This document shows, piece after piece, positions 9,816 through 53,839 of a stretch of 64,000 nt of DNA. Made by a program: the position numbers and the translations under genes. Position 1 is the stretch's first letter. Every line of letters starts with the position of its first letter. Source of the stretch: Vermamoeba vermiformis (taxonomy: Eukaryota); contig JBEWZL010000166.1 of the NCBI GenBank assembly GCA_045837725.1, positions 124,001 to 188,000 on the forward strand, given 5' to 3'. The notes beneath the pieces are model-generated. The model saw only the letters and a program-made list of their open reading frames with translations, was not told the DNA's origin and did not search any database.

Positions 9816-10974
9816 TATGACTTTATTAGTGCCTGTCGTCTTTAAATAAATTCGTCGATTTAATGCCGGTCGACATGAAAGGCCTGTGTTTATTTGAAAA
9901 ATAAGGGACCGGTAGATCTCATTTTGACAGGCCAAAATCGTGGCGAGCTACAATAACATCAATACTACGATGGATAGCACCAATAATATTAATTGCCGTT
10001 ACGCAGCCAACCGTCAAAAGGGCTGAGACAGGGCATGCCCGTTGATCTGAGATGTAGTCATGCGTTCTCACGAGGAACTAACGAAAAAATCTCTGCAAAA
10101 ATACAAAGCATCTCTTGGCGTAATTGCGACTTAGTAGATATAAACGAATACATGAATGCACAAATTCGAATCTGATCTTCACAAAGCTCGTTTATGGAAA
10201 GGTGCTAATTAATGAAAAAAATTAAGCATTTATTGACCACTTTTTTAAATAGTGCAAACAAAGAAGCCCTACAACGAAGATACGAAATTGAATATTTAAT
10301 TATTATTATTGGTAAATAATCATTGTTAATAAAACGTTGTTGCAAAAACTCACCAATTAATGAAAAATCATTTAGATATTTTTCTTTCCCAACATATCAT
10401 GCTAAGCTAATTGGACTGACCCGCAGATCCGGATCATGCAGTACGGGCTGCTTAGTCACCCATGCACATGATCGCGGAGATTTGATAGGTATGCGAGAGA
10501 AGTGTCGCATAGCAACGTGAACAGCTGTGCGCTGGATGAGTAGGAGTGAATCATCGCACCCTCCATTCGTGCCAACGGACACACTCGAGGACAAGTGCGA
10601 CAAGACTGGTAGATCCACTCTGAGTGTGCAGCACTCTGTTGAAGATGAAGAGAGCGGGCTCGTTGTGTCGTAGCACAGTCCAAGCTGACCAGCACTGCAA
10701 GTTGATCGACTGTTGTTCGTTTCTTTGAATCAATGACGCAGCAGCGCCATTTGGAATCACAACGCGAGGACCAGCAATTCAATTACTCTCCAGACTTGGT
10801 TGCCAACAATGAGAAGAGAGGTGCTTTGCCGCTCTTTTCGTGACGAAAGAAAGCTGCCGTGAAATATCCACGTCCGTGTTCGTAAGTTGGGTCTGCAAAT
10901 TTGGCCTTTATTTACTTTCGTGAGACCAGCACTACAAGCCTACTTATTATTAGCAACTAATAATATTATAAGAA

Positions 10975-13900
10975 ATGTTTCGTCAAGTCATAGGCAGAGC
11001 GTTGCTTGGAATGAAGACTGCTTCGCGCAATCAACGAGGTAATTATTAATTTTGGATTATGCATCAATTATTTATTGTTATAATAGCCAAATAATGCGAT
11101 CCAAGTAATCGTCTATAATTATTTTTCCAAGGTTCTAGTATTAATGCTTTTTAGTTAGTGGTGCCCTTTTTCAACGTGCTTTTTTACACTCGGCGCATTT
11201 CGTGCCACTACACATTGGGGCAAACAAATAAGACCGAATGTATATCCTATGGCGCCACCAAACACCCAAGATATCTTCCAATGCAAAGAAGTACGAATTT
11301 GAAAAATTTTCAGGAAGTTAATTAATTTGCAGATGCAGCCTATTCCATCAAGGTTGATAGACCAGGTCCACGTATGTTATTATAATGACGTTATCTTTAA
11401 CTAATCAACATGTAAGCACTTGAACGACTCATAGAAGCACACAAGCAGTCTTTGAATCTCAATGCACAGAGGCAGGTGTACGGCACTTGTTTGCAAAAGC
11501 CATTGCCACTGCGAGAAAATCTTTCTTTCGAAAACTACTTCATGGAAGATATTGTTGATGCTCCAATTTACAAACCTTTCACAGCCTTTGTTCGTGACAT
11601 CAAGAGTTCAGCCCTTGAGAAGAACAGACAAAATCTTTACCTGGGTGCAATGGTGCAAAGTATGAACAGCCCTAACTGATGTGTCTTTTAATAACACAAT
11701 TTACTTTAGTCCCTGGCTATGGCAAGACACATTTGGCACAAGTATTCACTCGACTGAACAATGCACTGTACTTCAAACTTGGGGACACAACAGACAGCAC
11801 ATTTATTGAACCAATACAGGCTCAGATTGAACTGTTGAAGACAAAAATAATTCCTGAAGGTTTCAACAATGCTGATGCCAGTCAGTACAAAGAATTCACA
11901 GCTAAATCACAACAAGTGGTAGAAGTATTCTTTTTGTGTGCTATCAAACACTATGTGAATTGTTACCAGCACTTGCTTGATCTGGAGTACGATGCAAAAA
12001 CTGCAACAGCAATTTGTTCACAAGTTTTTGACAACCAGTGTGGAACCTACTTCAGAGAACACATGTTGAAAGATTCATGGACACAAATGAATGACATCAA
12101 CTGGCTTAAGAGTCTGTACCTTGAAGTAGCACAGTATGTCCAGCAGTACAACATTCAAGCACTTTTTTGCGATGAGGTTCACTCTCTGCAAGGAAAACAT
12201 GTTGGAGAGTTCAGTCACACAGCCCTCCCTGTTGCAGATAAAGATTGGCCTGAGGTACAAACGCAAACTGCTGTTCACCATTTCTAACACTCTTTAGTCT
12301 CTGATCCCAGCACGTGCTGCCTATGAGCAACATTTTCACCAGCGCAAATGCACCCCTGATGATGTTGTACAAAGAATTATCAAAGCATATGACAGAGCTA
12401 CTTCACTGACTTATCTGATAGTCACTGTACTAGAGACCATTTCACTCAAAACTGCCATAGCTGTAAGTACTAAGTTTATTTGATGAAATTTCTGCTCAAT
12501 ATCATTAATTAACTGTTTGCAGAGCATATTGCTCACCACAGACAAGGATGCCATTAAATTTGTTGAAGGTTCACGAGCAAGCAGAGATAGGGTCCAACTC
12601 AAACAGTTTGAAAATTTTGAAAGGAATGCATCTGAAGAAGCAGCTCGACAAAACAATCTGCTGAAAGAGTACTTTTCGATTGATATTCACAATTACATAC
12701 AGAACACAAATCGAGACTACAAGAAGATCATTGAAACATTTGGCAGTCGTGCAGTGTACTTCAAGCGACTGTTGCAAGCAGTAAGGAACAGTGCTGCTTT
12801 ATTATTTACTTAACTTCAATTGCAGGTCATCAATTATATGGTGACACACAAACCTTCAAAGGAAGCTATCAACAATGCACTTGATGTCATTTGGAGTGCA
12901 ACTACAACGAATTGTATGCTGCAAGCAGGACAACTTGTAGAAATCCTCAGAGCAAACCAAAATGTAAGAAATCACAACTCTAATCTAAAATGAATGCAAA
13001 CTAACAGTGCAGTACTACCATGATGTGCTGTATGGAGCACTATTTCACAATGGTCACTTGCAAAACACCTATCCTCCTGTGCAATTGAAAATGAACAATG
13101 CCTTCATGCCATGTGTGGCAGAAAACACCAGACAGTAGATTCAAACAGCAAATGACTGATTGGTGGGTGTTGAAGTACATCACCTCTTCAACTAGAGCCA
13201 TAACTTACACTAAGGTAAAACCCTATCATACAAAAAATTGTTTTAATGGTGCCAAACAGACGTTAATGCATGCTCATTACCTTGCACCCAACCTTGGCAT
13301 TCAAGGAGAAGATCTCCTCAAACTGGTCCTTATGCAAGCTTATGGTCAAAAAATTGCAGATTTAGCTGTTCAAGGGTCACAGTTCCATCATCAGTCCCTG
13401 GTTCATGGGTTATTCATTGATGTGACAGCATGTGGAGATATTGATGAGTTTGATATGACCCCACTTGAGCTGCTTCAAGACCCACTCAACACTTTGAAGC
13501 AGAAATTCATCAAAATGGCAGACAATGGCATTGTGAAGCCTGATGGTCTAACATTGCTCACTAATGTTATCAATGAATATGTCATTGCAGCATGGCAGTC
13601 AAAGAATTGGAACAAAAGATTGGGTGCTAGGGAGGTGGAAGAAGCATTGAAGTCATTGGACCCAGATCTGTTCTTTTCACAAGATTCAGCTGATCAAAAT
13701 GAATGGCAGAATATCAAAAATCCTCAGCAGTGGATGAAATACATTCGTGTAAGTTGCTAGTCTTCAATGCTAATGAGAGTACTTAACTGTGATTAGGTTG
13801 TATGGGCAAAAGACTTCTCTTCCACTGCACTTCAGCTAATCAATGAATACAACTTGAATAAGGAGAATGTTAACACTCCTATTGTATTGATGACATTTGC

Positions 13901-14127
13901 TCAGTTACCAAAGGAACTGCAACCACAGGAGACCAAAAAGATGCAGCAGAAACCAAGTACGTAGTTGATTCCAAACATCGTAAATTGCAGTGCTAATAAT
14001 TGTAGGAGAAACAAAAAAACAGCCCAACTTTGGCCTATTTGGTGGTGCAACTGCCAAAACAATTGCCAAATCAAGCGTGAAGCTGGCCAAACCAAGAACC
14101 AAGCCAGCCAAATCAGCCAAGAAGTAA
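10975..14127 (+). CDS. Crinkler/CR-effector-like protein: P-loop NTPase plus PD-(D/E)xK nuclease-like domain (multi-exon, possibly decaying)
   Basis: Spliced Walker A MVQIPGYGKT, Walker B ALFCDEVH, C-terminal KPDG...AAWQSK nuclease-like motif and a Lys-rich tail ending at TAA 14125-14127. The 5' exons and one internal intron (about 13079-13121) are uncertain. Confidence 0.65.
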
Positions 14128-14207
14128 TTTTCATCACCCTTCTTTTTCTGTTGTACGAAGCCAATTTGTTCGCATTAAATTTTTCACATTTGAGTTCTTT
14201 TATGTCG

Positions 14208-17127
14208 TCAGTTGTCCAACACAGCCAATGCTTTCCTCGAAAATAAATTCGGCAGCACAAAATGTCGCACAGGCATCAACAGCAACAGGATAATTGGCAT
14301 GACAAGCTGCACGTAGTCGTACGGAAAGAATCCAATCACACAGAGCACTGCGAGACAAATGAACTGCGTCAGAGTGAACAAATGGATCACTCGCTGTTTG
14401 ACGCGGCGAATGAACGATGTCGCGGGGTACGAATTCTGTTCAGTGAAAATGAGCTTCATGCGCTCAAAGAACTGATTGCCATCGAGTGACGTGATAGCCA
14501 TGAATAAGAATACGCCGTAGAGAACAGGAGCCTAAGTTAATGGTCAGATCTCTTCTTTTTTGGATCGGGCTTGAGAACTTACGGGAATGTATTGAAGTGG
14601 AATCGGGACCATTAATAACGATATTCCAATCATCAAATGCGATACTAATAATGTCAAACGAGTCTCGCGTGCCTTGACAACCCTTAAACGTAAGTGTTAG
14701 ATCTGCTAATTGCCCATGACTTGCACGTACCTTTCAACCAAATGTCCTTCAACGACAACTTTCTCGAGGTCAGCCAAAGCCTTAGCGTGAAGGGGTGAGT
14801 GCGGAATTGCTATAAAAGGAAATATGAGTTTTCACGAAAGAACGAAAAAGTGTCACGAACCTGCGTGTACCCAGGGTAAGCCATACAACGAGAGAACGAG
14901 GTTAATGATTGCCACGACGAACAAATCCCAATGATACGCTGAGCCCTTGCGCAGCTTGTTGCTTGGATGATTGGTCAAACGCGCTGAAACATTTTGATCG
15001 ACGAAGAATAAAATGCTGAGTGACAAGCCCAGCGCTGCACAGAGGAATATGGCCCACACTGGTGCATCGAGCAATGGCACAAAATTGAGAGGATTGCCAT
15101 CGCGATACGAGAACGGCGGGACTGAGAGAAAAAATGAGTTATTGCCTTATTTGGAAAGTGTGATACTTACGTGGAAGAGGTGCAAAGACAAATTGCGCAA
15201 AGATTGTTACCAAAATGACACCAATAAATAGTGCGTAATCAGCTAATAGACCTCGTATAGTATGCTTAAGTAGCACGCTGTATCGAAAATAGTATAATCG
15301 AACGCTGATCCAGGTCGTTGCGACTAGCAAGATGAAACTGAGCAAGAACTGGTCTTTGTGACATTCGGTCGTGCAGTTCCAAAACTCCGTCGCAAATTGT
15401 TCTCCGAGAGGTCTCAAACTGTCGTAACTGAACGCGACCACGATAAACATTGCAAAAGTTTCTTCGAGAAATCGTGTTGAAAATCGCATCAACGTGCTTG
15501 CGTCGGAAACACTAAGAATCACCAAAAATATCGAGTTCCATATGCCTGATAATATTTATTAGCAAAATTCTGTACGTGTATGAGTCTCAAAGTCAGATCC
15601 GGCGAGCGTAATTTTGTATCAGATCCAGCTGCATACCTGTCCAAGCAAACATTGGCAAAAACTCTACGCCATTCGAGATTGATATTCCATATATAACTTT
15701 TGTCAATAGAGCCAATGGTGCTGTTGAAAGTAACACGATCAACGGCTGACCGCCAACCAGTGAAAACACAACACCGCCGAACGCTTGAGAAATGATAATT
15801 TTCCGCACATCTATTGTCTTAAGTATTAGACCGGGACCTATTATAAATATACGTGGTATTTACCCATAGCGCCTTCAGTGTTCTGCTCGTAGAGTACGCC
15901 AAAAGCAATGACAGGCAAGAGTGACGCGAAGTACAAGAAAAAGATTGTCGAGATTGTTTTGGAGATTGTTCCTTTGCCAATAACACCTAATATAAAGTAT
16001 AATATTAGTATAATAATATACTAACTTTAAAAGTTAACTCAAAAGTATGAATAATAACATGTTTCGGATCTCTCTTGCGTATTTCTCATATCTTACCTTC
16101 TTTATAATCGGATAAATAATACTTGGCTCGTCGCTTTAAATCTCCTCTAATCCCGCCCAAGAATTTGCCAGTCCTTTTGAGTTCTTGGTTGACATCCACT
16201 TGGTCATGGTCGATCAACAACGTCTTGCTCGGATGTTCTATGCTCCTTAATCTCTTCAATATAACCCTTTAATAGGGCTTCAATCTCTTCAACAGACTTT
16301 GCATGAATTATTCCTCGTCGCAGCTCGTCGTTTGACAGCAACGATGCAAATGTTCTGCCAGTCTCCAGAGCAGACTTAGTCATTTTCTATTTGCACAAAT
16401 ATAAGCACAAATGTGATTATAAGGCATCGATAGTAATATCGTACCGTTTGTGCAGGAGCAGCAATGAAAATGACGGCGTTCACGTGATTGGATCCTTGTC
16501 GCGTGAATGCAGTGCCTTGATTGAATGTAACGAGGGCAACATAACGCTTTTTGAGCAGTATTGAATCGGAGAGAATGATAGAATAAGGCAAATAAGCGTC
16601 TCCTTCTCCGTAAACCTCGATCTGTCTTGAAAACTCTACCAAAAAATAACTAAATTAGGGAAACTGTAAAAATAATTGCAGAAAATATATTGGTGTAAAT
16701 TTCGTAAACTAGTTTCAAATTGTGTAATCACGAGACAAAACACATGTTGATTTGATCTGGCTTAAATACCTTCATTGACGACTAATACGTTGTTCTTGAT
16801 GTCGTCCTGAATATCCACTCCAATTTCCGTATATTTAGCGCCTAGTTCGGACAAGATCAGGTCCAGCAACGATGTCACATCCCGAGGATGATGATTGTGC
16901 AATATCACCGAATTCTTTCCTTCTGCCAAATTGATGACATCCTTAAATGCGCTCTCTTCTTCAAATGTACGAGCACTGATCGCCTGCACAACAAAATTTA
17001 GCAATGAAATGGATCGATCAGATCTTACCTTTTGATGTGTTAACAAATAGTATCTCTTTTTCTCGATATCATTGGTACTTTGAGACTCTGTTTCAATCAT
17101 ATTATCAATAAACAAAATAATCGGCAT
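14208..17127 (-). CDS. SLC4-family bicarbonate/borate transporter (SLC4A11/BOR-like)
   Basis: Family motifs FLYFASLLPVIAFG, GGQPLIVLLSTAPL, TRFLEETFA, LFFVDQN, KLRKGSAYHWDL, VKARETRLT and SLDGNQFFER. Confidence 0.92.
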
Positions 17128-53104: not shown

Positions 53105-53839
53105 ATGCAAATAGTTAGAATTAGACATTTGAATCTCGAATCAGACACTAAAACAAGTTTAGATCCTCGCTTGCGCGAGACGTACCACACCTTGATAGAC
53201 GACAGTGGACTTGCCGAATCCGTTAAACAGGCGTTGAAGATAAAGAGCCCAACACGGATGCACACTGAAGTGCTAGAATCTGTAGCTCTTGATTCGCGAG
53301 TCAAACCGAACTTGCTCAAAAGTACTTGCCCCAAACGACTGTTCATTACCGAGCCAAAAGGTGCTACGAAACCCTTCATACTTGTTAAGAATCTGAAAGA
53401 TGCAGATCTTGATGATGTAGGATACTTAACAGGTGAAAATTCTGGCCAGGGTATAGACGCACTGGAAATTAGAAAATTGAGCGAATCCGAGTACGACTTG
53501 AATTTTATTCAAATGAAGATGGGTTCTACTCCTGTCAACGCATCCACAGGCAAAAACAATGCATCTAGATCTGCGTATGCAATTGTAGGTCACTTTGCAG
53601 ATCCGGAGAATAACCCAAGCTCTATACTCGCGCAGTACGTGAGAGCGTTTAGAACAGCCTTCGGTCACCCTGTTACATTCAAGGTCAAGAGAAGCGTTTG
53701 GGTAACGGTGCAACCAAATGCTGGTGCAGTGAAGCTATTAAAAGCAAATCACTTCGAAATAACCCTACTCAAAGATATTTGGTCGGATAGCGTTCTGAAG
53801 TACGCTAGAAACGTAAACTTACCCCACATATTCGAGTAA
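53105..53839 (+). CDS. Intronless PD-(D/E)xK restriction-endonuclease-fold protein
   Basis: 244-aa ORF with EVLE, GID and IQMK arranged like nuclease motifs I, II and III. Confidence 0.55.
   Translation: MQIVRIRHLNLESDTKTSLDPRLRETYHTLIDDSGLAESVKQALKIKSPTRMHTEVLESVALDSRVKPNLLKSTCPKRLFITEPKGATKPFILVKNLKDADLDDVGYLTGENSGQGIDALEIRKLSESEYDLNFIQMKMGSTPVNASTGKNNASRSAYAIVGHFADPENNPSSILAQYVRAFRTAFGHPVTFKVKRSVWVTVQPNAGAVKLLKANHFEITLLKDIWSDSVLKYARNVNLPHIFE

Follow-up and report, generated by a model that had tools for sequence, protein, structure and literature searches.

According to the available part of a review (PMC5289972), an NTPase is proposed to gate or drive a nuclease on DNA in CR (Crinkler-RHS-type) proteins, and CRN proteins are described as nuclear; the header list in that part names no mitochondrial header, and the string 'mitochondri' occurs there 0 times. 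We analyzed a 64,000-nucleotide stretch of Vermamoeba vermiformis DNA (hereafter the window; contig JBEWZL010000166.1, positions 124,001 to 188,000), in which a spliced gene at 10975-14127 would encode a predicted P-loop NTPase fused to a predicted PD-(D/E)xK nuclease. Our preferred explanation, which we hold at close to an even chance, is that this gene belongs to a small family that joins differing headers to a conserved NTPase-nuclease core, and that the header of the window copy is likely to send the protein to mitochondria. The CR clades were reportedly defined by Zhang et al. in 2016, and that paper may already list this family. In the literature we found no description of a Crinkler/CR protein with a mitochondrial header, or of a Crinkler in V. 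vermiformis.

The spliced gene and its predicted NTPase-nuclease core

The spliced gene at 10975-14127 is real. Our model places 12 exons, with about 850 codons, on the + strand.

Exon 1, 10975..11038, +: presequence-like header, MFRQVIGRALLGMKTASRNQR; the first 20 residues hold 3 Arg, 1 Lys and 0 Asp/Glu
Intron 1, 11039..11158, +: long (120 nt), phase 1; 11154 is a competing acceptor and 11087-11104 a possible micro-exon
Exon 2, 11159..11290, +: remainder of the header; Arg-x-Ile-Ser cleavage-like motif at residues 33-37
Exon 3, 11333-11371, +: with exon 4, linker and start of the conserved core
Exon 4, 11417-11659, +: core start up to the strand preceding Walker A; exons 3-4 show 47-51% tblastn identity to C3 and C2
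Exon 5, 11710..12254, +: P-loop GYGKT (11715-11729), predicted helical insert and Walker B; both flanking introns skipped in contigs
Exon 6, 12298-12462, +: with exons 7 and 8, remaining part of the NTPase (LLTTD strand and a conserved Arg) plus a helical linker
Exon 7, 12523-12780, +: joints 12462>12523 and 12780>12826 present in contigs
Exon 8, 12826-12963, +: end of the exon 6-8 part
Exon 9, 13013..13214, +: contains a frame break at about 13112-13154; without read or contig coverage
Exon 10, 13260-13748, +: predicted PD-(D/E)xK-type nuclease, E...PD...QxK (with exon 11)
Exon 11, 13797-13956, +: predicted nuclease, continued
Exon 12 (last), 14006..14127, +: Lys-rich basic tail, not present in C3 and C2; splice signals only

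The GT-AG introns of the core at 11659>11710, 12254>12298, 12462>12523 and 12780>12826 are skipped in contigs at a depth of about 2-12, where the contigs are only probably RNA, none of the runs being recorded as such. The junction 11659>11710, which creates Walker A, is skipped in a contig of run X2. The differences of run X2 checked in exons 7-8 were synonymous in 4/4 cases, which are part of a table holding 13 further rows. Neither contigs nor reads cover 13016-14270, and the raw-read runs X4 and X5 gave matches only to neighbouring genes, mostly at less than 95% identity, plus poly-A. A contig of run X1 jumps over 73 nt of the NTPase exon (12047-12119) bounded by CT..AC, which may stem from splicing of an antisense transcript or from template switching at a repeat of 4 nt. 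One base is missing at 12405 in a contig of run X3; this would shift exon 6 and may be an error or a second broken allele.

Walker A lies at 11712-11729 (GYGKT), FCDEVH at 12165-12182, PDG at 13539-13547 and WQSK at 13593-13604, which confirms the Walker A, FCDE and PDG...QSK motifs named in a sequence-only reading of this DNA. The core alignment of the window copy with three paralogues (C3, C2 and C89, described below) has 77 invariant columns, including G162-T166, F312-H317, E645, P676-D677 and Q695-K697, in 4/4 copies. Given that they are invariant in all four paralogues, the predicted NTPase and nuclease motifs are not due to chance. The catalytic set of a PD-(D/E)xK nuclease (helix acid E645, P676-D677 and Q695-S-K697) is likewise kept in 4/4 paralogues, and PD is found in 12 of the 13 rows of alignment A2, the remaining row ending before it. 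A fold search with the nuclease returned PD-(D/E)xK nucleases in 13/16 top rows and tRNA-splicing endonuclease subunits in 2 more, by our own labelling of the rows. The NTPase plus PD-(D/E)xK-type architecture proposed earlier is supported by the paralogue-wide motifs and by these fold-search rows. Pfam gave no family name for the nuclease exon and its relatives, the PDB sequence search gave no match below E 1.6, and a search of a viral fold library gave no match.

For the NTPase exon, Pfam returned AAA_22 only (E 0.025). The named Atlas matches were of AAA/KAP type, with scores of 0.75-0.78 that serve as leads only, and the others were unnamed clusters with low recognition. The structure model of exon 5 was helical and poor (predicted local distance difference test, pLDDT, 60) and matched generic helical bundles only. 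The linker between NTPase and nuclease, the place where CR proteins can carry an HTH domain, is distributed over several short exons.

Paralogues, headers and possible mobility

We searched the genome, a 43-Mb assembly with TTAGGG telomeres, using two exons as queries. At least four family loci were found: the window copy, its closest paralogue C3 (42% identical from Walker A onward), C2 (38%) and C89 (28%). The survey of paralogues for differing headers that the sequence-only reading had proposed showed that the N-termini do differ among the four copies, with three header types among the four paralogues plus one copy without a clear header. Mitochondrial-import-like headers occur in two of the four, the window copy and C3. 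The N-terminus of C2 has a short segment that we take to be SAP/HeH-like (a Pfam search gave no match), followed by a basic stretch resembling a nuclear localization signal (NLS). In C89 no clear header is seen, although a further 5' exon may exist; this copy carries an EF-hand (E 5e-5) inserted after Walker B and a C-terminal KKRRR, and a TTAGGG array begins less than 1 kb from its end (L007 5152-5577 and 8474-8639). Two internal stretches that the other copies have are missing from C3, and it has a 410-nt intron (L005 3197-3606) where that of the other copies measures 43-50 nt.

The joined exons 10975-11038 and 11159-11290 yield the N-terminus described in the sequence-only reading as Arg-rich and free of acid, and its first acidic residue is at position 48. 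The header carries a net charge of +5 over 30 residues, with a hydrophobic moment of 0.51. Exon 1 has a GC content of 0.48 (versus 0.34 upstream and 0.24 in the intron) and a donor score of 8.0, against a median of 7.7 in the training set of introns from the window (n=42, 39-64 nt, median length 48); acceptor 11158, which the model needs, scores 4.6, inside the training range. In C3, the first exon is also Arg-rich and acid-poor (70 nt, versus 64 nt in the window copy), and both exons have a GC content of about 0.5 and strong donors. Because the exon 2 frame of C3 has no Met, its start must lie upstream of exon 2; its first intron is free of the competing-acceptor problem discussed below. A phase-1 intron follows the header in the window copy (120 nt), C3 (134 nt) and C2 (144 nt), and control mitochondrial genes have introns near their 5' ends that include ones of 91, 109 and 285 nt. 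The N-termini of the window copy and C3 resemble those of PDH E1-alpha, E1-beta and BCKDH of the same genome. The window header shows weak similarity to exons 1-2 of C3 (global z 3.5, local z 1.4).

We also applied two presequence rules, both chosen after seeing the data. The strict rule asks for 20 residues free of acid, 3 or more Arg and a moment of 0.35 or more; the window header and BCKDH pass it, C3 and PDH E1-beta fail it, and 20/1468 background ATG stretches and 2.55% of 2000 shuffles pass it. Under the looser composition rule, the window copy and C3 pass but C2 and C89 do not, with 54/1101 background ATG-opened stretches passing. The mitochondrial presequence suggested earlier gains independent but modest support from C3, which has an Arg-rich first exon and a long phase-1 intron and lies on the same side of the tree. 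Mitochondrial targeting of the window copy is plausible, and we place it at about an even chance. A micro-exon at 11087-11104 was rejected for want of an in-frame path, as was a secretory signal peptide, for which inspection revealed no hydrophobic core.

Outside this genome, 13 proteins out of 1.84 billion matched in a profile search, and 10 of these matches are credible; the other three (P0007, P0011 and P0012) were dropped as repetitive bacterial-type proteins. Most outside relatives are fragments of one exon, breaking off at a shared intron position, and one of the relatives, P0010, is labelled as V. vermiformis transcriptome. The genome scan gave one locus (L020) out of 61 candidates: an intron-bearing gene, lacking its 5' end, on a contig of 2.9 kb that is deposited as part of a cyanobacterial assembly, with a stop-free 614-residue model that is 44% identical. 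L020 is likely a contaminating eukaryotic contig rather than a gene transfer, and because its 5' end is missing no header could be read outside the genome. Searches of longer proteins found no full-length relatives, which is weak evidence, and none were found in metagenome scans or in viral contigs. As judged from these searches the family is narrow in range and small, and it is likely amoebozoan. In the core tree, the window copy, C3 and L020 separate from C2 and C89 with support of 95/97, which fits a presequence-like header that was gained a single time. A tree built from just the nuclease exon, with P0004 and P0008 excluded, does not settle this point.

C2 is flanked by two copies of a 254-289-bp segment (L006 3096-3383 and 6991-7276) that are 94-95% identical and absent elsewhere in the genome. 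The segment is the 3' end of the adjacent TraB-family gene. By analogy, this setting would match an insertion that duplicates a long stretch of its target, an event reported for bacterial restriction genes in the available part of PMC2853133. No flanking repeats were found at the window copy. The lineage-specific copies may be linked to mobility: of at least four loci, one lies in a duplicated target and one is subtelomeric. A selfish or defence role is favoured over a housekeeping one by how fast the copies diverge, by the breaks found in some of them and by the duplicated target.

The window copy lies between an F-box gene and an anion-exchanger-like gene. Upstream of it, 10400-10880 is relatively GC-rich; the four frames tested matched nothing in Pfam, and the DNA has no counterpart elsewhere in the genome. 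At about 10140-10410 (+) there is a short spliced transcript (introns 10202-10252 and 10312-10375; open reading frames, ORFs, of less than 40 codons) directed away from the F-box gene. It was rejected as a 5' coding extension because every frame stops before 10975. Elsewhere in the window, an intronless 244-codon ORF at 53105-53839 (+) with G-x-D ... FIQMK resembles a second, unrelated PD-(D/E)xK-type nuclease; it had no Pfam match and is not in the protein collection.

Where the protein may act

In the explanation that we prefer, the NTPase, as has been suggested for CR proteins, would gate or drive the action of the nuclease on DNA, and the first exons would set the compartment of each copy. 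The branch of the window copy and C3 would have acquired its presequence a single time and would cut or police matrix DNA, such as rival mitochondrial DNA, plasmids or other invading DNA, while C2 and C89 would act in the nucleus. The family would move and decay like a selfish or defence gene. Several observations weigh against this explanation. Contigs and reads from four runs do not cover 10506-11258, so the exon 1-2 splice is without RNA. Acceptor 11154, the first AG past a branch-like site, scores 7.5 versus 4.6 for 11158 and would throw exon 2 out of frame with ATG 10975; the exon 1-2 model of the sequence-only reading thus stands as to its N-terminus and is in doubt at the joint. ATG 11281 offers a headerless start that reaches the core. 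The later link from header to core in C3 relies on weak splice sites. As assembled, the nuclease exons are out of frame with the NTPase, and the family, unlike CR proteins, has no Ubl/LxLFLAK header and no Pfam match to Crinkler or RHS models.

The points on acceptor 11154 and ATG 11281 favour a protein of the same family that is cytosolic or nuclear, starting at 11281 or 11011, with the basic first exon either untranslated or a nuclear/nucleolar signal. The Lys-rich C-terminal tail, the NLS-like stretches in C2 and C89 and the nuclear location described for CRN proteins (PMC5289972, in part) point the same way. However, the first exon of C3 is, independently, Arg-rich and joined in frame to the core, and the frame of exon 2 in that copy contains no Met. 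In the window copy, exon 1 has a coding-like GC content and a strong donor, and its Arg residues are set between hydrophobic ones in a way that suits an amphipathic helix (moment 0.51) and not a cluster of Lys/Arg. We therefore regard a cytosolic or nuclear protein as a serious but rather unlikely alternative. The window copy might instead be a decaying, still transcribed pseudogene that now makes no nuclease, whatever its header once did. The frame that continues from the NTPase stops at 13136-13138 in exon 9 and the nuclease frame opens separately, while the same stretch is open in all five relatives compared (C3, C2, C89, L020 and P0010). As assembled, this copy would stop short of the nuclease, being either mis-assembled there or damaged. 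The stronger out-of-frame acceptor, the one-base gap at 12405 and the possible antisense splice would suit decay, as would the frame break that C2 carries of its own and the internal stretches missing from C3. Against it, about 850 codons contain only this one break and keep every catalytic residue, and the checked strain differences were all synonymous. Moreover, the break coincides with a short run of A, a kind of site at which assembly errors can arise, and a 34-nt GT-AG stretch (13115-13148), below the 39-nt minimum of the 42 training introns, could span it; the break may be an assembly error, a true lesion or a site bridged by an unusually short intron. We consider decay unlikely for this copy, and it would be compatible with the family-level claim.

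MGME1, Exo5 and RRG7 are mitochondrial PD-(D/E)xK nucleases, and one of the more distant members of the family shows a weak match to RRG7 (E 0.0096, 1/13 rows). Together with the presequence-like header and the existence of other such mitochondrial enzymes, for example Pet127 (PMC9014873, in part), this could indicate a domesticated housekeeping nuclease/NTPase for mitochondrial DNA or RNA processing, and not a conflict gene. The fast divergence and narrow range (10 credible matches in 1.84 billion proteins), the header swapping, the broken copies, the subtelomeric copy and the copy inside a duplicated target make this very improbable. Beyond our preferred explanation, we tentatively propose, as a doubtful but specific idea, that mobile NTPase-restriction-type nucleases changed compartment by first-exon swap, with one branch directed to the nucleus and another to the mitochondrial matrix, and that the matrix branch would be a nucleus-encoded restriction-like or drive factor destroying rival or foreign mitochondrial DNA, for example after cell fusion.

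Comparison with known systems

In the available parts of PMC5289972 and PMC11342252, CR proteins, like this family, have a variable header followed by a P-loop NTPase and a restriction-endonuclease (REase)-type domain, occur in several diverged copies and count free-living eukaryotes among their hosts. A P-loop NTPase upstream of the nuclease is present here, with Walker A and B invariant in 4/4 paralogues. The family differs in having few copies (at least four) and headers that look like intracellular addresses (presequence-like, or SAP-like plus NLS-like). The Pfam Crinkler model (the Ubl, LxLFLAK, HVLVVVP header of strict CRN proteins) had no match on exons 1, 2 and 4. The sole genome match of PF20147 (25.5 bits) was a ubiquitin-like ORF with no family member within the surrounding 8 kb. 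The predicted protein is thus not a CRN in the strict sense. By analogy, it likely works like a CR/Medea-type NTPase-REase module, with membership of the CR family unproven; the label 'Crinkler-type' given earlier holds for a likely way of working and fails for membership, given the missing Ubl header and CR/RHS Pfam matches.

The REases of Tribolium Medea1 and Wolbachia CifB/CinB (PMC11342252, in part) have the CR-REase7 His three residues after the catalytic Glu, where this family has QSK; for the Medea1 comparison, an antidote gene was neither found nor tested for. As in restriction-modification systems (PMC2853133, in part), the nuclease gene C2 stands between long direct repeats unique in the genome. 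Unlike those genes, C2 is eukaryotic and intron-bearing with no methyltransferase seen. Pet127 (PMC9014873, in part) has a nucleus-encoded REase-fold domain and a presequence, as predicted for the window copy, but enzymes of its type are conserved housekeeping proteins with neither a fused P-loop NTPase nor nuclear-addressed paralogues. Uniparental inheritance in Physarum, an amoebozoan, depends on a Mg2+-dependent mitochondrial DNase that is described as still unidentified (PMC8864008, in part); no Physarum homologue was found or tested for here. The four paralogues, with different addresses on one core, would offer a compact natural test of header swapping. CR-type NTPase-nucleases have been described as exported or nuclear; a mitochondrial branch would be a candidate for the removal of unwanted organelle DNA in amoebae and, if true, a CR-type conflict module directed at an organelle genome.
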